From the NCBI GenBank assembly GCA_027051165.1, contig JALTZZ010000029.1, positions 9,001-73,000 on the forward strand: a stretch of DNA of 64,000 nt. Direction: 5' to 3'. The notes below the pieces were generated by a model, which saw only the letters and a list, made by a program, of their open reading frames with translations, had not been told where the DNA came from and ran no database searches. Origin of the DNA: an archaeon. GTDB lineage: Archaea; Hydrothermarchaeota; Hydrothermarchaeia; JALTZZ01. Made by a program: the position numbers and the translations under genes. This document shows, one piece after another, positions 28,904-63,552 of this stretch; position 1 is the stretch's first letter; the number at the start of each line of letters is the position of its first letter.

Positions 28904-28976
28904 GGGCCCGTAGCTCAGCAGGCAGAGCGCCGCCTTCGCAAGGCGGAGGCCTCGGGTTCGAATCCCGACGGGTCCA
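28904..28976 (+). tRNA. tRNA-Ala (anticodon CGC); its 3' part (28935-28976) is the provirus att core
   Basis: Cloverleaf: acceptor GGGCCCG/CGGGUCC with the G3:U70 Ala identity pair; anticodon stem CCGCC/GGCGG with loop UUCGCAA; T-arm UCGGG-UUCGAAU-CCCGA; followed by an oligo-T. Confidence 0.95.
28935..28976 (+). repeat. attL core (42 bp; 3' part of tRNA-Ala)
   Basis: Identical to 63294-63335. Confidence 0.9.
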
Positions 28977-31247: not shown

Positions 31248-31787
31248 CTATTTGGCAATATATTTCTGTAAAAAAGAACCATCCAGAAATATAGGTAATT
31301 CATCTACATTTTTAAGTTTTTTAATAATCTCCTGTTTAATAATAGCTTTTATATCTTTTCTTTTTAAAATACCATCAAAAATCAATTTTACATCTGTATG
31401 AATTGTATAAAAAGACTTTCTTGTAACAATATTAAAATTACATGCTGGACATCTCCATTTTACTAAAAAAATTAATCTTAATCTTGAAAGTAGATGTTCA
31501 CTTTCTTTCAGTTTGCTCGAGCAATTAGGACAATAAGGCGTTTCTTCTATTAGAAAATTTTCTAAATTTAAATTGATTTCGTCTACCATTGGACTTGGAA
31601 TAGAAAAGACGTTGTAGAAATTAACATGCCAAATTACTGGTTTTGTTAGTGGATGTGGAAATTTTATAATAATATCTGGAGCACTATCATATAATGCTCT
31701 ATCATAAGTTGAACCTAAAACAATTGGTGGATAGTTTTTATTATAGTCTTCTTTATACTTTTTCATTAAAACACCTATAAAAATCAT
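31248..31787 (-). CDS. Hypothetical membrane-anchored zinc-ribbon protein
   Basis: N-terminal hydrophobic segment; CPNCSSK...CPACNF zinc ribbon. Confidence 0.3.
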   Translation of the reverse strand: MIFIGVLMKKYKEDYNKNYPPIVLGSTYDRALYDSAPDIIIKFPHPLTKPVIWHVNFYNVFSIPSPMVDEINLNLENFLIEETPYCPNCSSKLKESEHLLSRLRLIFLVKWRCPACNFNIVTRKSFYTIHTDVKLIFDGILKRKDIKAIIKQEIIKKLKNVDELPIFLDGSFLQKYIAK

Positions 31788-38256: not shown

Positions 38257-38268
38257 TTTTAAAGTCTT
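38257..38268 (+). promoter_or_regulatory. Provirus promoter motif TTTTAAAGTCTT (AAAGTCT 26 nt upstream of ATG 38287)
   Basis: Member of the recurrent motif family. Confidence 0.45.
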
Positions 38269-40153: not shown

Positions 40154-40921
40154 TCACGGAGATGAGCTCAAATACAAGTTAACCATCAGCAGCAAATGCC
40201 TTCTAAGGCTCGTAAAGCCATACTCCAAGCTCTCGGTTATCACCTCCAGTTCTTTTGAATTATAAACATACGAATAAAGACTATAGGGCGAGTATTGCCT
40301 AAACTCTATTTCTTTTTTCAACTTCTCAAAATCAATTTTGCTTTTTGCTTTAAGGCTATATCTGCTAAAACTTTTGAACCTAACTCTTCTCGTGATCATG
40401 GCAGACAATCTATCGAACTTCTGCAGGGTTTTAAGCTCCTCATCCTCAATTTCATCATGATGGTGAACGCAGAGCCATCTTACCCTATCGTCCTTAATCT
40501 CGACATCAAAGTAAATTTTGCTCTGATGCTTAGGCGTAGAGACGAAATCATGAAGCAACATAGCTAAAACCATTCTTTCCTGAGCAGGAGAGAGCTTTGG
40601 CAAGCACCTCATTATTTTTATCTTTTTTCTTGGCTTTGGCGGAGCAACATTCTCCTCAACTTTAAGCCAGCGAACTCTACCCATACCTTCGCTTTGGAAC
40701 CTTCCTAAAGAATCAAGTAACAAAACCTTCTCAGGCTCGTTTGTATAATACTCAACAATGCCGAAAAAAGCCTTAAAACTGCTTGGAAACATTCTAACAT
40801 CCTTCTTTATCTTCCCGTAGAATCTTTCAACACCCTTAATTATAACGAGACCGTAATCATGTCCAAATCTTCTTTCCTTGGTAACAATAGGCGTTATAGT
40901 TTTGCCGACTACCTTAAACAT
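40154..40921 (-). CDS. Hypothetical protein with an N-terminal RAMP-like G-rich-loop segment and a C-terminal His-rich (HD-like?) region
   Basis: N-terminal ~90 aa end in LGRFQSEGMGRVRW (G-x5-G-h-G loop). The C-terminal part carries LLHDF and CVHHHDEIED. Last gene of the 4-gene minus-strand cassette. Confidence 0.3.
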   Translation of the reverse strand: MFKVVGKTITPIVTKERRFGHDYGLVIIKGVERFYGKIKKDVRMFPSSFKAFFGIVEYYTNEPEKVLLLDSLGRFQSEGMGRVRWLKVEENVAPPKPRKKIKIMRCLPKLSPAQERMVLAMLLHDFVSTPKHQSKIYFDVEIKDDRVRWLCVHHHDEIEDEELKTLQKFDRLSAMITRRVRFKSFSRYSLKAKSKIDFEKLKKEIEFRQYSPYSLYSYVYNSKELEVITESLEYGFTSLRRHLLLMVNLYLSSSP

Positions 40922-41669
40922 TTAGAACCCTCACCTTCTCCTTATACTCGACCTTATAGCCGTCTATCGTTTTAACAAGCTTTCTGATCTCCTCAACCTC
41001 TTCAAGAACTATTTTCCTCAGCATAACTTTACCGTAGCCAGCATTGACCCCGCCGCCAAGCTCTTCTATATAAAGCAAAGATTCAAGAATGAAATTAAGT
41101 TCCTCATCGTTAAGCTTGGTCACATCAATGAAAAAAGTAAAGTCTCCGCTTATATATCCCTCCTTGAAGTCCTGTATTGGTTTCTTGTCGTAGCTTAGAG
41201 CAATTCTGTTTTCCGTTGCGATGTGCATTTTTACAATAGGAATATCTGACCTATACTCCGCATGCTTTATATTTGCTATCGGGGGACTCCATACTCTTAT
41301 TTTGCTTGGAACATGCATAGAGCCAAATATTTTATGAATTATGCACTCGTTTAGCGGATAGCAGCTTCCAAGCGGATGGAATCCCTCAGGTATAAGCTTG
41401 TTTCCGTGCTTATCCTCTTCTTTGTCAGATGTATGGCAGACCTCTATACCCTTGGCTCTGGCACATCTCATAGCTGCATGCCTTAGCAAGCCCTTGAGCC
41501 CCTTGATGTAGTAAGCTTCCGCCTTGTGCTCCTTACCGTTGTTCGTGTAGGGAACCGGAGCAAGCTTAAGCAAAACCTTAGATTTTTGAACCGTTCCGTT
41601 GCTCGGCTTTGCTATGGGAGTATAGGCTTCAACTCTTATTCTTTTATATTTCTTCTTTATCTCAAACAT
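40914..41669 (-). CDS. RAMP-like (Cas7/Csm3- or Cas6-like) protein encoded in the provirus, with no CRISPR locus in the window
   Basis: YYIKGLKGLLRHAAMR resembles the (S/G)xxKGxLR RAMP motif. A four-Cys cluster (C-x8-C...C-x6-C) is followed by IIHKIFGS (cf. the Csm3 CxxC-RLFGS). C-terminal G-rich loop ELGGGVNAGYGKV. Confidence 0.35.
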   Translation of the reverse strand: MFEIKKKYKRIRVEAYTPIAKPSNGTVQKSKVLLKLAPVPYTNNGKEHKAEAYYIKGLKGLLRHAAMRCARAKGIEVCHTSDKEEDKHGNKLIPEGFHPLGSCYPLNECIIHKIFGSMHVPSKIRVWSPPIANIKHAEYRSDIPIVKMHIATENRIALSYDKKPIQDFKEGYISGDFTFFIDVTKLNDEELNFILESLLYIEELGGGVNAGYGKVMLRKIVLEEVEEIRKLVKTIDGYKVEYKEKVRVLNV

Positions 41670-45141: not shown

Positions 45142-45340
45142 AATAGATGAAGATATGGATGAGCTCAGAATAGTAGAAAAATCTGATATTCCAATTAGAT
45201 TTTACTCTGAAAACGGAAAGATATTTGCTGATGTGCCTGATGATATTGCAGAGAAGCATAAACTTTTGGATGGAGAAGAACTTGAGATTATAAGCCCTAA
45301 AGATTCTGGCTGGAAATATATTGCTATGTATATTATTTGA

Positions 45341-45353
45341 TTTTTAAAGTCTA
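45341..45353 (+). promoter_or_regulatory. Provirus promoter motif TTTTTAAAGTCTA (AAAGTCT 25 nt upstream of ATG 45371)
   Basis: Member of the recurrent motif family. Confidence 0.5.
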
Positions 45354-48330: not shown

Positions 48331-48714
48331 ATGATCACGGTTAGCGACGTTAGAAATGCACTTGGCAAAGCATATGAAACGTATCCAAGCGATACAGTTA
48401 TACAAAACTATATTGATCAGCGAACAAAAGAGCTCAAGGAACTCATAGGGCTTGAGGATCTCGCACAGGCTCCTTATCAGCAGCTACTTAAAAAGTGGCT
48501 GCTGAACAAGGTTTGCATAGACGTTCTACGCTATGATCTTTTGGGAACGGATTCGGCAGACGCTTTGGAATATACAATCGGGGATCTCAGAGAAAGCAAG
48601 AGCGAAAATATAAAACTAAAGTTACAATGGATCGAAATCTTGGAAGAGACCGCTAACAAGGCCATTGAAGAATACTTCGCAAGAACGATCAACTACGAGG
48701 CAGTATCACCTTAA
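48331..48714 (+). CDS. Putative head-tail connector (gp6-like)
   Basis: 127 aa; MITVSDVRNALG...D..IQNYIDQRTKELKELIG resembles the N-termini of gp6-type connector proteins. Confidence 0.35.
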   Translation: MITVSDVRNALGKAYETYPSDTVIQNYIDQRTKELKELIGLEDLAQAPYQQLLKKWLLNKVCIDVLRYDLLGTDSADALEYTIGDLRESKSENIKLKLQWIEILEETANKAIEEYFARTINYEAVSP

Positions 48715-48925
48715 CTTTGTAAGTTTTATAAACTTTTCAAAACCAAAATAAAAACAATGAAAGAATACAGAAGCTTAAAAGTTTTAAAGATGTTGAAAAA
48801 TCTCGTTGAAGAAAAGTTAAGTGATTATGTTACAGTTGAACAACAGGGTCTCATTCTTGTTATCAAGCCAATTAACATTGATGAACTTAAGGATAAAATA
48901 GCAAAACAGCTTGAGGAGGAACTAA

Positions 48926-49426
48926 ATGCCTTCACAAGAGGAAGTTCACAGAGCAATTAACGAACTTGGCGGTTTTGCAGATTTTAATGATTTAAAAGAG
49001 TATTTTGGCATGGAACATCTGAAGGGAAATAGTTGTCTGCCTCAGAGAATCAGAGCTTTAGAGAGAGATGGTAAAATTACGAGGTTGAGGCTTGGCAACA
49101 AAAGTATTTTCATAAGTCTTGATTTCTCTTGTTCGAGAGAAGAAGCAATTAAAATTTTAAAAGAGTTTGGAATACTGAAGGAACAAAAGAAAGAACAAAG
49201 AAAAAGAGGAAGACCACGAGGAACTTACGTTTACAATGATGAAATGATCTACAAGATTATGGATTTTATTAGAGAAAAGAAAGTTGTAACAAGATGGCAA
49301 ATAAGAAAACATTTGAAGATTAATGATAAAACCGTAAATAAATATCTGAATAAACTTCTTTCTGATGGTGCGATTTTTAAGATTAATTCTGGTGGGTGGG
49401 AGCTTTACACGATATTTAATCTCTAA
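48926..49426 (+). CDS. Winged-helix DNA-binding protein (candidate regulator)
   Basis: 166 aa with two HTH-like segments (LKGNSCLPQRIRALERDGKI; VTRWQIRKHLKINDKTVNKYLNKL). Confidence 0.35.
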   Translation: MPSQEEVHRAINELGGFADFNDLKEYFGMEHLKGNSCLPQRIRALERDGKITRLRLGNKSIFISLDFSCSREEAIKILKEFGILKEQKKEQRKRGRPRGTYVYNDEMIYKIMDFIREKKVVTRWQIRKHLKINDKTVNKYLNKLLSDGAIFKINSGGWELYTIFNL

Positions 49427-49441
49427 GACTTGCCTGATTCT

Positions 49442-49486
49442 TTGTCAATATATTTCAAAATTTTAATTTTTGAAATATATTGACAA
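49442..49486. promoter_or_regulatory. Perfect 19-bp-arm palindrome TTGTCAATATATTTCAAAA-N7-TTTTGAAATATATTGACAA
   Basis: Carries the 17-mer TTGAAATATATTGACAA in both orientations, in the convergent intergenic region downstream of ORF 49490-50044. Confidence 0.6.
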
Positions 49487-49489
49487 ACT

Positions 49490-50044
49490 CTAAAGCCTAT
49501 AGAAACTTTCATACAGAATTCTGGAGTAAAGTTTTATCGCATTTAAATAGTTATACTTATTACGAAAATTGAGTTTCTTATAAGCTTCACAGTTTTTTAA
49601 ATCCTGATCGATATCTTTTAGACGATTAGTAATTATACTAAATGCTATATTTCTAACTGAGAAATCTATACCCAACTTCATAAAACGTTCAGAAATTTTA
49701 TTTACCAAGTACTGCAACATTCTCAGGAATGTTTTTAATGTGTTCTGTCGTATTCCCTTAAAATCATCAAAACTCTTTCTGTAAAGTAGTATCAATTTTG
49801 CATAGTAAAGTGTATTTGCTATATCATAGCTTTTTCTTTCGTTTTTCAGTTGTTCATAAGCTATGTGCTGATAATCATAAAGTTCAGTTTTCTCTAAATA
49901 CTCTGCAATTTTATCATCATTTTTTAATGCATAGGGTCTCAAACTTCTTGTTTCAGTGCCATTCCACCCATACTTATATTCATATATGTCTTCCTGTAAA
50001 ACTTCCAACATTTCTCTGAGAATTTTTGTCTGAATACCTCGCAT
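49490..50044 (-). CDS. Hypothetical protein, oppositely oriented inserted (moron-like) gene flanked by repeated 17-mers
   Basis: 184-aa AT-rich ORF antisense to the structural module, with no recognisable motifs. Confidence 0.4.
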   Translation of the reverse strand: MRGIQTKILREMLEVLQEDIYEYKYGWNGTETRSLRPYALKNDDKIAEYLEKTELYDYQHIAYEQLKNERKSYDIANTLYYAKLILLYRKSFDDFKGIRQNTLKTFLRMLQYLVNKISERFMKLGIDFSVRNIAFSIITNRLKDIDQDLKNCEAYKKLNFRNKYNYLNAIKLYSRILYESFYRL

Positions 50045-50057
50045 GGTTGCTCACCTA

Positions 50058-50110
50058 TTGAAATATATTGACAGTTCATCAGGTAAACAATTGTTGAAAT
50101 ATATTGACAA
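50058..50110. promoter_or_regulatory. Two direct copies of TTGAAATATATTGACA(A/G) upstream of the minus-strand ORF 49490-50044 (operator/promoter candidates)
   Basis: Copies at 50058-50074 and 50095-50110, 14 and 51 nt upstream of the minus-strand ATG; they contain an AATATAT TATA-like core. Confidence 0.5.
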
Positions 50111-50169
50111 CATTGCAGCGATAACATTACAATTTCTGGTGCGGTTTCCGCACCGAAAATTCTTTCAGC

Positions 50170-50182
50170 TTTTTAAAGTCTA
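50170..50182 (+). promoter_or_regulatory. Provirus motif TTTTTAAAGTCTA (37 nt upstream of ATG 50212)
   Basis: Member of the recurrent family with non-canonical spacing. Preceded by hairpin GTGCGGTTTCCGCAC (50139-50153). Confidence 0.35.
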
Positions 50183-50211
50183 TTGGCTGGTCTCATTCTC
50201 GGTGATGCAAA

Positions 50212-50433
50212 ATGTTGGAATACTATGCTCTGGGAGCTACGGTCCTATCAGCGGCGTTAATTTGGGCGACGAGGAAGTATGGTAAGCAGATCGAAATGTT
50301 CAGAAAGAAGATCAGAACGGCTAAGGAATTGCTTGAAGAGATAGAGAAAGCAATGAAAGACAACAAAATAACAGAAGAAGAGCTTAGAGATATTGTAAGA
50401 CAAACAAAGAAACTTTTGAGTGATGATAGATGA
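50212..50433 (+). CDS. Small protein with N-terminal TM helix
   Basis: 73 aa; YALGATVLSAALIWAT. Confidence 0.3.
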   Translation: MLEYYALGATVLSAALIWATRKYGKQIEMFRKKIRTAKELLEEIEKAMKDNKITEEELRDIVRQTKKLLSDDR

Positions 50434-51186: not shown

Positions 51187-51238
51187 ATGCTTCGCTTTTT
51201 TCTCAAGGCCCTAAGTGAGGGCCGAGGAGAGATTTATC

Positions 51239-51688
51239 ATGATAAGAGAAGTGCTTGAAAGCTTGGTAAGGCTACTTAGGGATAACATAGCTGATCCTGA
51301 TCAAGACAGAGCAAATGCTGGCAAAAACTTTATTTTTCCCGGTTGGGTTAGAGAAGATGCCAAAATGCCTCGTATTAGCATAATTTCTGTCGGCACAACT
51401 GAGCAAGAAAGAACGCTTGAAGGTTATTCGCTTTTTGCAATGCAGTATCAAATAGACGTCTGGGTAGATACAAAACGTAGCTTTACGATTAACAATGAAA
51501 AATACAGCGGTGCAAAGCTTCGTGACTATTTAGCTGATCAGGTAATTAAGGTTTTGAGAAAAAATCGCAATTTTATGGAGAACGTAGTTGATGTGGAAAT
51601 TAGAAACGTTCAGGATTTTGAGGAGCGGGAATTTAATCTTTTACGCAAATCTATCACGATCACGGTAAAATATCTGGAGGTTAGCTGA
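51239..51688 (+). CDS. Hypothetical tail-module protein
   Basis: ~150 aa (ORF opens at GTG 51215; ATG 51239 is the likely start), between the gp10-like and major tail genes. Confidence 0.3.
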   Translation: MIREVLESLVRLLRDNIADPDQDRANAGKNFIFPGWVREDAKMPRISIISVGTTEQERTLEGYSLFAMQYQIDVWVDTKRSFTINNEKYSGAKLRDYLADQVIKVLRKNRNFMENVVDVEIRNVQDFEEREFNLLRKSITITVKYLEVS

Positions 51689-55523: not shown

Positions 55524-56657
55524 TTATTTAATTTCGATTATAATTTTAATTCTTTCTTTCTTCGAATCCAAGATGTAATAATCTTCGGGTATAAACTTCC
55601 AGCCATCAGGAATTCTCTCTTTTATTTTATTAGCACTATTTTCTTCTTTCTGTGCTTCGCTTAATTTACGTTCATGTTCTAACAATAAACTACCCCAATT
55701 TTTACACGAACCCGTAATTCTGCAATTTTGTATGTATAAATACCAATATGCTTCTTTATACTTTCTGCAAGCCCATTTCATTTTGTTTGTCCATTCTCTT
55801 AGCTTTCTTAAGTTTTCTTTGTCAATGCTTCCCAAATATCTACCTTCCTCGCTTAGAATACTGTTCAAACGCTTCTCGGCTGATGAGAAATGCTCTTCGC
55901 ATTTCCTTGCATCATAATATATATCATATACACTTTCGTTGACGATCCTTATTCTTGGTCTAAATGCGTTGTAACTTTTTAGGGCATTGTCAATATCTTC
56001 TTTCGCATACATGTATTTATAAACTGCTTTCTCTGAAATTAATAAACAATTTCTTAAAAATGGTGGTTCCTCGTATAATAACCATTCATTACCTTCTTTT
56101 TTAAGAGTGTAGTGTCTTTTTATCAACAACTTCGGAGATTCGAGTTTAAAATAAACTTCTGCAGTATTATCCTTCACTTTCGTTTTAATTATCTCAACGT
56201 CAAAGCCTTCTTCCTCAGATAAAAGAAGCTCAGCGTTTCTTTCTATTATTCTGTCTGCTGTCCAGTCAAGCCCTCTTTCCTCTCTACATTTTTCTTCTAT
56301 ACGGTTTTTTATATCTTTATGGACGTATTTCGGAACTTCATTAAAATCTTTATACGCTATAGCGTCGAAAAATGCTTTTATTGTTTTTGCTGGTTCTGGA
56401 GAGTTTTCTTTACTTTTATTTCTGCTTGAATTTTGTTTACTTAAATTCTGTTGAACGTTTTTCTGTTCTTCAATTTCTTTTGTTTTATTTTCTACTTTGG
56501 CTGGTTTAGGAACTTCAATTTTTTCTTCCTGTTTAGTTATATTTTGTTTTTCGAGCTCTTTTACTTGTAGTTGTTGTTCTTCTTGTATTTTTTGAACCTG
56601 CTCACATCCTGTTAACAATATTACTAAAAGCATGAAAACCATAAGTTTGTGCTTCAT
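55524..56657 (-). CDS. Lipoprotein (signal peptide plus lipobox LLTGC), oppositely oriented inserted gene
   Basis: MKHKLMVFMLLVILLTGCEQ is a signal peptide with a lipobox; a Lys/Glu-rich linker follows, then a globular domain; lies in an AT-rich island between tail genes. Confidence 0.45.
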   Translation of the reverse strand: MKHKLMVFMLLVILLTGCEQVQKIQEEQQLQVKELEKQNITKQEEKIEVPKPAKVENKTKEIEEQKNVQQNLSKQNSSRNKSKENSPEPAKTIKAFFDAIAYKDFNEVPKYVHKDIKNRIEEKCREERGLDWTADRIIERNAELLLSEEEGFDVEIIKTKVKDNTAEVYFKLESPKLLIKRHYTLKKEGNEWLLYEEPPFLRNCLLISEKAVYKYMYAKEDIDNALKSYNAFRPRIRIVNESVYDIYYDARKCEEHFSSAEKRLNSILSEEGRYLGSIDKENLRKLREWTNKMKWACRKYKEAYWYLYIQNCRITGSCKNWGSLLLEHERKLSEAQKEENSANKIKERIPDGWKFIPEDYYILDSKKERIKIIIEIK

Positions 56658-56713: not shown

Positions 56714-59455
56714 ATGCCAACCGTAGAGGAACTAATCGTAAAAATAAAAGCTGATGTGGCGAGTTTACAAGCTGGTTTAGTCAAAGCTCGTGAAATGCTC
56801 AGCGATTTCACAGATAAGGTTGAAAAACTAAGCAAAAGCATGCGAAGCATGGCACTAAAAATGATGGCTGTAGGCGGGGCAGTTTCAGCAGGATTCGGTT
56901 TAGCAATCAAGGAAGGAATGGAACTCGAGCAACAAATGGCATACGTAGCAAAAACGACGGGTTTAGCAGGAGAACAGCTTATAGAGCTTAGAGATAGCTT
57001 GCTCGCATTGAGCACACAGATGCCTACATCAGTTGAAGAACTCGCACAGATAGCACAGATAGCAGGTCAGCTTGGTATACAGGGTAGAGCAGCAATCCTC
57101 GAGTTCACGAAAACAGTTGCACAGATGAGCGTAGCTTTTGATATGACTGCTGAAGATGCTACAATAAACATGGCAAAAATTGCAGGTGCTTTTGCATTGC
57201 CCATTAAACAAGTTAAAAATCTCGCAAGCGCTATAAACGTTTTGGGTAATACAACAGCAGCTGCAGAGAGAGAAATTTTAAACGCTCTAAGAAGGTTTGC
57301 AGGTGTAGCCTCTCAGTTTAATATAACGGCTGACTCAGCTTCTGCACTTGTTGCAACGTTAATTGCCCTTGGTGAAGAGCCAGAAAGAGCTGGCTATCGC
57401 TTGTCATCAGCTATTCTCGATCTCACGGACAATTTAGATAAACTTGCACTACAAATGAGGACAACTGTTGAGGAACTTAAGAAACGTTTAGATATGGGTG
57501 ATGCTTTAGGGGTCCTTCTCGACTATTTGAACTACTTGAGACGTATACCAAGCGAAACAGAAAGAGCGGCACTGGCACAGGAAGTATTTTCAGCAGATGC
57601 ATACAGGGCAGTAGCTAAGCTTATAACAGCTTACGACACTCTTCAAGTAAACTTAAAAAATGCTCAGCAAGGCTTTATAGAAGGAACAGCACTTGCGAAG
57701 GAGTATGAGAACGCAACAGCAACGTTGGCGGCACAATTCCAGAGATTAAAGAATGCTATGAAGCTAATAATGATTAAGGTTTTTGATAAAATAAAACCTG
57801 ATTTGGACAATTTTGTAACAAGTATCGAGAGAGCGCTTCCACAGATTTACGCTTTTGCGATAGTATTTGCTAAAACGCTAATTCCAACGTTAAAGCAGTT
57901 TGGTCAGGCTTTATTATCACTTATGAAGTGGTTCATGAACTTGTCTCCGGCTCAGAGAGAGGCATTAATAAAGTTTACTGCGATAGGCACGGCTGTAACC
58001 ATGCTTTTAGGACCGTTGCTACTATTAGCATCGTTTACACTTCCGCTTTTAGCGAAAAGCTTTAAAATGGTTGCTGGAGCTGCATTGTTCAGCACAAGGG
58101 CATTGTTAGCTTTCAGAAGCGGTGCGATATCGGCGAGAATGGTGAGCATAGCAACAGCTATAAGTTTAGCAAGACTCAGAGCAGCTTTATTTGCAGTTTC
58201 AAGGGTAGCAGGAGTTATAGGTCTAATAACAGGTGCTTTGTGGGCTATAAACAAGGGCGTTGAGAAATTTACAGGTAAGGCACTAACAACAAGAATAATG
58301 GAGAGGATCGAAGGAACATGGTTCGGCAAAGCAATATCGAGCTTAAAAGAAAAACTTGGATTACAAAAGCAAATTACAGATGAAAAGAAAGAGGAACTTG
58401 AGATAGAAAGAGAAATGAAAGAATTTGAGGATATTATGAAAAAGATAAAAGAAGAACAGCTTAAAATAGAAACTGCAATAAAAAATATTAAACAAGAAAC
58501 GTTAGAATACACGTTTGAGCAATCAAAACAAGAAAAAATAAACTTAGACTTGCTAACTAAAGCTGTTGAAATTTACAATAAACTCATAGCTCTTAAGGTT
58601 AAGGGCAAGGAACTAACAGTTAGGGAGCAGGCAGAACTGGCTTGGGCTTCTGATATTATAAGCGAAGCTAAAAAGCTATACGAGGATCTCGTAGCTAAGC
58701 AAATGCAAGGTGAACAGCTTACAAGTTCGCAGGTGACAACCTTATCGCAACTACAGGCGATTTTGAGCGGTGTTGTTAGCGAAGCAGAGTTATTAAGTAA
58801 TGCTTTCGGTAAAGCAGGTTTTAAAATAGATGAAATAAGAGAGAAAGCAAGACAGCTTGCTGAGGAAGCACATAGATACTTACAGGAAATCGGAGCAGAA
58901 GAAAAGCCAGCACCGCCAAAGCCATATATACCGCATAAACTCGAAGATACCGTGCAAGAGTTCGTTAGAAGATTTAGAGAAGAGCTTGGAATCGACAAGG
59001 CAAGAGAGTTGGCAGTCAAGTTCTATGAGGAGTTCTGGCATGTAACTGTTAGCGAGGAGAAGAAGCGTGAGCTCGGTATAAAAGTCAAAGCTAAGGTTGA
59101 CAAAACAGAATTAGAGGAATTTTTAAATCAAAAAGTAGAAAAAGTTATTGACATAGTTCCAAATATGGAAAACTTAAAAATACAAGATTTAACAGCTAAT
59201 TTAAAGATAAATACAGATACGACAGTTTTACAAACAGTTAATGATATGCTTACAAATATACAGACAAAAATAAATAATTTGAATGCCATTGTGTTGAGTC
59301 CACTTATAACACAATTTTCAAGCTTGGCTGGTGCAATAAACAACGTATATAACAAACTTGAAGCTGTTGAAGCTAAGTTAAACTCTTTGCAAGGAAAAAG
59401 AATTGATGTTTACATAGACTTACACAACGACCTCGCAAGGAGGGGTGTATTCTAA
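56714..59455 (+). CDS. Tail tape measure protein
   Basis: 913 aa; TMP-family N-terminal region (AVGGAVSAGFGLA...LAGEQLIELRDSLLALSTQMPTSVEELAQIAQIAGQLG); central hydrophobic helices; long coiled coils. Confidence 0.75.
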   Translation: MPTVEELIVKIKADVASLQAGLVKAREMLSDFTDKVEKLSKSMRSMALKMMAVGGAVSAGFGLAIKEGMELEQQMAYVAKTTGLAGEQLIELRDSLLALSTQMPTSVEELAQIAQIAGQLGIQGRAAILEFTKTVAQMSVAFDMTAEDATINMAKIAGAFALPIKQVKNLASAINVLGNTTAAAEREILNALRRFAGVASQFNITADSASALVATLIALGEEPERAGYRLSSAILDLTDNLDKLALQMRTTVEELKKRLDMGDALGVLLDYLNYLRRIPSETERAALAQEVFSADAYRAVAKLITAYDTLQVNLKNAQQGFIEGTALAKEYENATATLAAQFQRLKNAMKLIMIKVFDKIKPDLDNFVTSIERALPQIYAFAIVFAKTLIPTLKQFGQALLSLMKWFMNLSPAQREALIKFTAIGTAVTMLLGPLLLLASFTLPLLAKSFKMVAGAALFSTRALLAFRSGAISARMVSIATAISLARLRAALFAVSRVAGVIGLITGALWAINKGVEKFTGKALTTRIMERIEGTWFGKAISSLKEKLGLQKQITDEKKEELEIEREMKEFEDIMKKIKEEQLKIETAIKNIKQETLEYTFEQSKQEKINLDLLTKAVEIYNKLIALKVKGKELTVREQAELAWASDIISEAKKLYEDLVAKQMQGEQLTSSQVTTLSQLQAILSGVVSEAELLSNAFGKAGFKIDEIREKARQLAEEAHRYLQEIGAEEKPAPPKPYIPHKLEDTVQEFVRRFREELGIDKARELAVKFYEEFWHVTVSEEKKRELGIKVKAKVDKTELEEFLNQKVEKVIDIVPNMENLKIQDLTANLKINTDTTVLQTVNDMLTNIQTKINNLNAIVLSPLITQFSSLAGAINNVYNKLEAVEAKLNSLQGKRIDVYIDLHNDLARRGVF

Positions 59456-62417: not shown

Positions 62418-63335
62418 CTAACTCACCAGTATAGGGAACTTGTCCACAACTTTCTTGTAGTGCTCTATAGCTTGCATCCTCAGAAACAAATAATGCTTGC
62501 TCCCTACTTTAACGCTCGCCCTTCCTTGCATAAAATCGGCCACACTTTCAGGGATATTATGCAAAACGAAAAAATTATCAACCCATTTTCTTATAGCATT
62601 TGCATCAATACGTGAGTTAACAGGAGGCCTCCATTTTCTTGGGTTAAGTCTCGCATACCATGATTTATATTTAAGCTTTTTATTTATAGATCTCAACTTC
62701 TCAGCAAACTCCGAAGGAAAGACTGCTATAAAACTTCTTTTTGTTCCTCTTGAAAATTCTACCATAGGATATGCCGCCACGTTGCCGTGATATTCTATTT
62801 TATTCTTGTCAAAATTTCGGAGAGCCAATATGGAAGGTTTTGCTCTCAATCCTGTAAAAACAAGCCATTGGTATAGAATTAAAGTATCTTCATCCCACTT
62901 CTCTTTGATTAAATAGTAACCTTGTTTTATCTCTTCATTAGTTAGATAAACTTCTCTTACACCAGATTTTGGGATTTTAAGAAAGCTTGAAGATAGAATA
63001 TCCATTGCTATCCATCTGTTCATCATCTCTCTTTCAACGAGATAGTGAATTAAGTTCCTCACGGCTCTAACGAAACGTTCTTTATCCGTGCATTTATAGA
63101 AAGCCTTCCTAAGATCTTCTTTTGATTTAATGGGTTTATCTAAGTATTTATCAAGGATTTTTATTATTTCGTTAAGATATTCTTTACTCGTTATTTTTGG
63201 CTTCTTTTCTATTGTTAGGTAGTTTATGAAGTCTTTTTCATCAACATCATACCAATTTATTATGTATCCTTCTATTTGAATTATATTTTCATTTTCGCAA
63301 GGCGGAGGCCTCGGGTTCGAATCCCGACGGGTCCA
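62418..63335 (-). CDS. int: Integrase C-terminal fragment int(C) of an SSV-type split tyrosine integrase (with in-frame att core)
   Basis: The minus-strand ORF encodes the core peptide WTRRDSNPRPPPCE, then NENIIQIEGY...FTGLRAKP...HNIPESVADFMQGRASVKVGSKHY (recombinase R / H..R / Y residues). Upstream of the core, the listed ORF start MLILCKTNKK is host-derived read-through. Confidence 0.75.
   Translation of the reverse strand, partial: WTRRDSNPRPPPCENENIIQIEGYIINWYDVDEKDFINYLTIEKKPKITSKEYLNEIIKILDKYLDKPIKSKEDLRKAFYKCTDKERFVRAVRNLIHYLVEREMMNRWIAMDILSSSFLKIPKSGVREVYLTNEEIKQGYYLIKEKWDEDTLILYQWLVFTGLRAKPSILALRNFDKNKIEYHGNVAAYPMVEFSRGTKRSFIAVFPSEFAEKLRSINKKLKYKSWYARLNPRKWRPPVNSRIDANAIRKWVDNFFVLHNIPESVADFMQGRASVKVGSKHYLFLRMQAIEHYKKVVDKFPILVS
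63294..63335 (+). repeat. attR core (42 bp partial tRNA-Ala copy)
   Basis: Identical to 28935-28976. Its flank 63336-~63400 is ~80% similar to 28977-~29045. Confidence 0.9.
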
Positions 63336-63552
63336 CTTTTTATTTGTTTTACACAAAATAAGCATGAATTAAGCTTATTTTTTGCAAAATTATTTTCATT
63401 TTTAACATTATTTTTGCACTTTTCTATAGATTCTAAATAATCCTCTTACAGAAAGCATAAATATTACTGGAGTATAGAAAAGATAAATTTATCAAAATTT
63501 TTATGCGTTGGAAAGATTGATCCCTTAATCTCAAGCCACATCTTACAAGAGA

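Follow-up and report, generated by a model that had tools for sequence, protein, structure and literature searches.

A minus-strand gene, ORF184, lies among the plus-strand virion genes of an archaeal tailed provirus, together with four copies of one 17-bp word. Judged from sequence comparison, this cassette is probably a strain-specific, moron-type accessory transcription unit, because related proviruses lack it and because it sits between the stop codon of a winged-helix gene, wHTH166, and a hairpin. By definition, a moron is missing from relatives, deviates in GC content, and has its own promoter and terminator (PMC3594210). ORF184 is absent at the same position in relatives, and its base composition is deviant, a feature that the adjoining genes o67 and wHTH166 share. 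Toward a promoter of its own, a TATA-like core occurs at a fitting spacing in the distal copy of the word (c4), and the predicted viral promoter word, TTTTAAAGTCTAT, is absent from the cassette. Toward a terminator of its own, a perfect hairpin with T-runs begins 2 nt past the ORF184 stop codon.

The original prediction described a self-contained regulated moron, made of regulator, operators and cargo. For the gene and its four repeats this description stands, as they are AT-rich, absent from relatives and located in a variable slot. It fails for wHTH166 as a private regulator, since relatives without the 17-mer and ORF184 keep this protein family.

The provirus and the setting of the cassette

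The window, meaning the whole 64-kb stretch of DNA that was analysed, starts with about 29 kb of archaeal chromosome, marked by genes for thermosome, archaeal-type PEP carboxylase and Bax1. It continues into a tailed provirus bounded by a tRNA-Ala gene and an archaeal integrase. The host is a deep-sea archaeon, and the samples concerned are metagenomes of hydrothermal origin. The provirus has genes for the large terminase, for PCNA and for a Cas4-like nuclease. The plus-strand virion module around the cassette encodes a protease, the major capsid protein, connector, Hc1, tail completion, tube and tape measure proteins. For the connector (48331-48714) and the tail-terminator (51215-51688), matches were sub-threshold only. 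The main features are:

28904-28976: tRNA-Ala(CGC), at the chromosome/provirus junction
48716-50136, no strand: AT-rich island of o67, wHTH gene and ORF184 cassette, GC3 0.28-0.31
48926-49426, plus strand: wHTH166, winged-helix protein with an RGRPRG AT-hook-like linker
49427-50136, no strand: putative inserted cassette, about 710 bp, between the wHTH stop codon and the conserved hairpin
49490-50044, minus strand: ORF184, 184 aa, ATG start
50051-50055, minus strand: GGTGA, resembling a Shine-Dalgarno sequence, 6 nt ahead of the start codon of ORF184
50137-50155, plus strand: GC-rich hairpin GGTGCGG-TTTC-CGCACC, -14.7 kcal/mol, z = -4.7
50171-50183, plus strand: predicted viral promoter word TTTTAAAGTCTAT, in front of the neck/tail operon and outside the cassette
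50212-50433, plus strand: ORF73, which opens the neck/tail operon and is read away from ORF184
62418-63365: archaeal phage integrase (PF16795), the only integrase found

Other reversed genes are present in the provirus. Two of them occupy 40154-41669 on the minus strand, between the large terminase and the portal. The stretch 40914-41669 (minus strand) encodes a RAMP-superfamily, Cas7-like protein (PF03787, E = 1e-11; weak Csf2/Csx10 similarity). Carried by a virus, such a protein may be a decoy for CRISPR or a component that was hijacked. In the tail module, a reversed AT-rich gene (55524-56657, minus strand; GC3 0.27) encodes a 377-aa protein with a lipoprotein-like N-terminus and without family assignment. 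It is located just upstream of the tape-measure gene (56714-59455), with a divergent promoter region common to both, and is probably another moron.

ORF184 is an orphan gene

ORF184 is a genuine gene. Its length of 184 codons was attained in none of 2000 dinucleotide shuffles, and the GGTGA sequence before its start codon also precedes other genes in the window with equal spacing. The predicted product has a mass of 22.5 kDa and a pI of 9.4, is rich in tyrosine, and contains one histidine. As recognised at the outset, the gene is an AT-rich, minus-strand frame inside a plus-strand virion module (GC 0.295 and GC3 0.28, versus a GC of 0.38-0.48 in the structural genes).

No homologue of ORF184 was found in about 15 billion proteins. 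Word-indexed searching of 5.8 billion clusters found nothing beyond the protein itself, and an exhaustive phmmer search of 1.84 billion representatives gave only two giant low-complexity proteins. Neither tblastn against phages and plasmids nor a sequence search of the PDB gave a match, and the same was true for blastn of the whole cassette against plasmids. The protein had been described as lacking recognisable domains, and in Pfam, PHROGs, PADLOC and NCBIfam no domain passed the threshold; sub-threshold matches to DUF2551 (E = 0.025) and to an HNH PHROG (E = 0.006) were regarded as noise. Another reversed, AT-rich ORF, at 31248-31787, bears no relation to ORF184.

With a maximum 19-residue hydropathy of 1.05, the product is expected to lack a transmembrane segment. 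Single-sequence AF2 modelling gave an all-helical protein with long helices and no helix-turn-helix, at a low-confidence pLDDT of 49. When this model was compared with the PDB by Foldseek, all matches were helical bundles, either generic or designed (E > 0.2), which we treated as meaningless. The product is predicted to be a cytoplasmic helical protein, which probably binds nucleic acids or acts on the host. A cargo of the abortive-infection, toxin or superinfection-exclusion type, as proposed initially, was not borne out: ORF184 matched 0 PADLOC families, and neither a transmembrane segment nor a fold match was found. A HEPN toxin was rejected, as the Rx4-6H motif is absent.

A 17-bp word confined to the cassette

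The word TTGAAATATATTGACAA occurs four times within 669 bp, always inside the cassette, and no further copy with up to two mismatches is found in 64 kb. The copies and the palindrome that two of them form are:

49442-49458, minus strand: c1, exact copy
49470-49486, plus strand: c2, exact copy
50058-50074, plus strand: c3, 16 of 17 positions, last A replaced by G
50094-50110, plus strand: c4, exact copy, AT core at 50097-50104
49441-49487, no strand: palindrome of c1 and c2, 20 perfect pairs with a 7-nt loop

The four copies are those originally reported, three of them at the same coordinates; the fourth starts at 50094 and not at 50095, a difference of one base. The distance from c3 to c4 is 36 bp. 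With up to three mismatches, two other matches appear in the 64 kb, each with three mismatches, while shuffled controls gave on average 0.85 matches and none of 100 shuffles reached six. The degenerate form TTGWNWWWWWWWNWCAA matches only the three perfect copies. A concern raised beforehand, that the 17-mer might simply be a common word, is therefore not supported within the window.

An 11-nt core of the word has extra copies at 31256 and 45313, both inside coding sequence, which we judged to be chance occurrences. An unannotated small plus-strand ORF at about 45155-45342 (MDELRIVEKSDIPIRFYSENGKIF...), just before the protease promoter, holds one such chance match and resembles, by eye, an AbrB/SpoVT-type fold.

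The palindrome was noted from the beginning as perfect, and it is, with arms of 20 bp rather than 19. As RNA, it folds with -21.8 kcal/mol at 37 °C (z = -8.8) and with about -5 kcal/mol at 75 °C, and its plus-strand loop carries T4AAT5 (49461-71). It is placed 15 nt past the wHTH stop and 2 nt past the ORF184 stop, where the two reading frames converge. The repeats are longer than first described. Direct repeats of 22 nt (49465-86 and 50089-110) are 95% identical, inverted repeats of 29 nt (49430-58 and 50058-86) are 83% complementary and have the extension ATCAGGyAA in common, and a further inverted pair (49442-63 and 50089-110) matches at 91%. The cassette is identical, base for base, in three independent assemblies from other samples, so that an assembly artefact does not account for it.

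A gene bracketed by inverted repeats of 22-29 nt with 83-91% agreement has the terminal repeats of a tiny IS- or MITE-like transposable element, in which ORF184 would be the transposase or a passenger, and a length of about 660 bp would fit the smallest IS elements. Nevertheless, we regard such an origin as very improbable. The target-site duplication is at most 2 bp under any boundary model, the protein has no transposase domain and no homologue in the 15 billion proteins, and the element occurs once in the window. No empty site was found either, as the cassette is present in every contig that encodes exactly these flanking proteins. Scans of viral and genome collections with exact 16-mers gave, among the matches listed, single chance-level matches of the word and no clusters.

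Other known element types were considered and rejected. An IS200-like element would carry a Y1 transposase, which is absent. Iteron replicons have at least three phased direct repeats beside a Rep gene; the cassette has only two direct copies, 36 bp apart, and no Rep or HUH domain. For an integron cassette, the palindrome lacks the GTTRRRY core, and the sole integrase is the archaeal phage integrase PF16795. A sigma-70 promoter match (TTGACA-18-TACAAT, 50104-50133) is irrelevant in an archaeon.

Related proviruses and the insertion site

With the neighbouring genes and the winged-helix protein as queries, at least six distinct relatives were recovered, either proviruses or viral contigs, and several come from sources named Archaeoglobales. 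The gene order in most relatives is connector, two small ORFs, wHTH, small plus-strand genes, Hc1 and tail completion. Exceptions are the contig L007, where the wHTH gene lies upstream of the protease, and L006, which lacks it.

ORF184 and the 17-mer are absent from every related provirus examined (at least six distinct ones), which argues against ORF184 being a conserved structural gene, the outcome that had been named as fatal to the moron reading. The interval 3' of the wHTH gene varies in content and is plus-strand only in every relative. It holds two small membrane proteins in L005, to which L242 adds a phosphoesterase-like gene, and other sets elsewhere.

In each relative, an intergenic stretch comes after the wHTH stop codon and has TTTTAAAGTCTAT at its end, about 17-30 nt before the next start codon. 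In L005, L244, L010 and L258 a hairpin precedes this word. Here, hairpin and word follow the cassette instead of the wHTH gene, which delimits the cassette to 49427-50136. By this comparison, the hairpin at 50137-55 appears to be the conserved post-wHTH hairpin, displaced by the cassette. As the relatives are distant (40-66% amino-acid identity), the edges of the insertion are set by these landmarks and not by base-level alignment.

The word TTTTAAAGTCTAT recurs ahead of operons and is invariant in five viruses, even though the viruses that carry it have no more than 40-66% protein identity. Outside the window it is present in L005, L242, L243, L244, L254, L257 and L258. Allowing one mismatch, five more plus-strand copies are found inside the provirus, and those at 38257, 42713, 45342 and 51175 stand 29-40 nt before a start codon. 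The word looks like a family-wide viral promoter, and its conserved extension past the TATA box, GTCTAT, hints at a dedicated factor.

Private repeats at this junction are also found elsewhere in the family. In L257 (3990-4090), after the wHTH gene, there are two direct copies of a unit of about 30 nt, each containing the palindrome TACCCACTTGGGTA followed by AAATTGAGTCTTTT.

The winged-helix gene and the AT-rich island

The upstream neighbour of the cassette had been called a winged-helix protein, and its Pfam HTH_24 score of 22.6 bits (cut-off 21.9, E = 7.6e-5) places it in that family. AF2 modelled its C-terminal three-helix domain with a pLDDT of 71-83. There is probably a second winged-helix domain at the N-terminus, although only the C-terminal one is modelled with confidence. 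Orthologues at the same position in relatives are 40-48% identical, and a search for a closer allele found no homologue above 65% identity. Because the family is kept in viruses without the 17-mer or ORF184, the wHTH gene must have another, conserved role. Conserved where head and tail genes meet in tailed proviruses of the Archaeoglobales type, the wHTH family may provide the factor for TTTTAAAGTCTAT.

The wHTH gene, o67 and the cassette together form an AT-rich island, with a GC3 of 0.28-0.31 versus 0.32-0.47 in the flanking structural genes. In other viruses, the wHTH orthologues match their neighbours in GC (GC3 0.37-0.57). A 1.7-kb contig from the same study, L004, is 90-94% identical in nucleotides (L004 1033-1579, window 48720-49282), and the start of this identity coincides with the left edge of the island. 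The identity is confined to o67 and the first two-thirds of the wHTH gene, counted from the N-terminus. L004 has unrelated upstream genes and a different C-terminal winged-helix domain, with the break just before that domain; its scaffold contains Ns and may be a chimera. These different contexts point to a recent modular exchange of the o67-wHTH allele, and leave wHTH166 as a candidate binder of the 17-mer rather than as cargo of the cassette.

The island might also be taken as one imported unit, in which wHTH166 is the dedicated regulator acting on the 17-mers and ORF184 the defence or exclusion cargo. Such a unit would account for the AT-richness of o67, wHTH gene and ORF184 next to orthologues of normal GC elsewhere, L004 illustrates that the o67-wHTH allele recombines into other contexts, and two probable domains on either side of an AT-hook-like linker would match a 17-bp site of bipartite form. 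However, the wHTH family is fixed at its position in viruses that have neither motif nor cargo, and ORF184 shows no defence-family match, transmembrane segment or toxin-like fold. We consider a common import rather unlikely.

Proposed control of ORF184

Under the preferred reading, an accessory unit of moron type, ORF184 would be transcribed leftward from c4, with the AATATATT core of this distal 17-mer as TATA box. In this virus, TATA 8-mers start 29-30 nt before leaderless ATGs, and the TATA-like 8-mer of c4 starts 60 nt before the ORF184 ATG. The start site would thus be near 50074-75, leaving a 30-nt leader with the GGTGA ribosome-binding site. The nearer copy, c3, had been described as containing a TATA-like core. 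It appears to be too near the ATG for an mRNA led by a Shine-Dalgarno sequence: under the 29-30 nt rule, transcription from c3 would start inside the coding region and GGTGA would be lost, so that c4 fits better. The promoter polarity of the 17-mer is ambiguous, as a BRE-like GAAA is located on the plus-strand side of the core.

Transcribed from c4, the message would carry c3 over positions +1 to +17, which makes c3 a proposed operator; c4 is proposed to act as an operator in addition to providing the TATA box. With one and the same word on TATA box (c4) and start site (c3), as is classic for archaeal repressors, a repressor could block both TBP/TFB and RNA polymerase. At the other end, the c1/c2 hairpin, with T4AAT5 in its loop, would end transcription of ORF184 as well as the converging transcription of the head operon; its strong folding and this loop would make it able to do so. 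The early suggestion of a bidirectional terminator or operator agrees with the placement of the palindrome and its folding energy of -21.8 kcal/mol, and both roles are predicted ones. If the word is bound by a protein, c1 and c2 would form a double binding site, which could loop to c3 and c4. Since the 17-mer shows no relation to the promoter word of the virus, the unit is presumably under separate control.

As the 17-mer is confined to the cassette, its binder is most simply encoded nearby. The most plausible candidate, put forward tentatively, is wHTH166, whose probably bipartite shape with an AT-hook-like linker would suit a site composed of TTGAA / ATATATT / GACAA. Against a dedicated role of this protein, its orthologues function in viruses without the motif. 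Autoregulation by the basic ORF184 protein is a fainter possibility; the protein has no recognisable DNA-binding domain, and the only hint is the sub-threshold DUF2551 match. That another factor binds the word seems improbable.

The repeats may also be cis elements without a dedicated binder, produced by local duplication of one promoter-like, AT-rich word, with two tandem promoters upstream and a hairpin terminator downstream of the gene. Copying would predict that the copies share flanks past the 17-mer, as they do (22 nt direct, 29 nt inverted), the AT core is TATA-like, and a hairpin with T-runs alone could terminate. Recent duplication, and not selection for binding, could accordingly explain why the copies are identical and have flanks in common. 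Nevertheless, a terminator needs no 17-20 bp in common with a promoter, and the proximal copy is too near the ATG to drive an mRNA led by a Shine-Dalgarno sequence. In addition, the word has TTG...CAA ends around an AT-rich centre, an arrangement typical of the sites of dimeric helix-turn-helix proteins. Repeats that act purely in cis are in our opinion a minority explanation that deserves some weight.

A bolder reading makes ORF184 the founder of a new class of sequence-specific DNA-binding proteins, which would loop the 600 bp between the four 17-mers and act as an insulator or roadblock between head and tail operons, or form a minimal selfish element of gene plus sites. We consider this a long shot; if true, archaeal viruses would have a regulatory or mobile module of a new type.

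Comparison with known systems

The first moron was described in the tail operon of phage HK97 (PMC3594210). Like HK97 gene 15, ORF184 is an extra gene amid conserved virion genes, absent from relatives, of deviant composition and apparently equipped with its own promoter and terminator, as predicted here. Unlike gene 15, it belongs to an archaeal host, with TATA box and oligo-T in place of sigma-70 promoter and rho-independent terminator, and its predicted promoter and terminator regions are built from a single 17-mer. The gene 15 product is a membrane exclusion protein, whereas ORF184 is predicted to encode a soluble orphan.

Repressors of archaeal viruses, F55 of SSV1 among them, bind to repeats that overlap the BRE and the start site, and many act on their own genes (PMC5569661). 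The cassette is similar in that identical words are repeated, presumably on TATA box and start site of ORF184. F55 is a 6-kDa ribbon-helix-helix protein acting on 11-bp repeats at several promoters, whereas the sites of the cassette are 17 bp long and occur at one gene only. Unlike in SSV1, the word also forms an inverted pair past the stop codon, and its binder is only a candidate.

Similar to Lrs14 and Sta1, wHTH166 has a winged-helix fold, with weak profile similarity to both (NCBIfam, E = 3e-8 for Lrs14 and 1e-5 for Sta1). Its scores fall well below the NCBIfam cut-offs (33.5 versus 90 bits for Lrs14, 25.3 versus 80 bits for Sta1), and we take the relation as a resemblance only. Sta1 acts on viral promoters (PMC5569661). 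In contrast to these proteins, wHTH166 is encoded by a virus, probably has two winged-helix domains, and contains an AT-hook-like linker.

Significance

Morons are already known as a kind, and ORF184 is one more orphan. What appears to be new, as far as sequence can tell, is an orphan moron-type unit in an archaeal tailed provirus, with repeated control sites that are unusually neat. To our knowledge, regulation in archaeal tailed viruses is almost unexplored. The locus is a compact test case for it, with a 17-bp word at the predicted TATA box, at the predicted start site and as an inverted pair at the 3' end, and with two candidate binders encoded beside these copies. Beyond this strain, the word TTTTAAAGTCTAT and the conserved wHTH gene at the head/tail junction may aid the annotation of Archaeoglobales-type proviruses.
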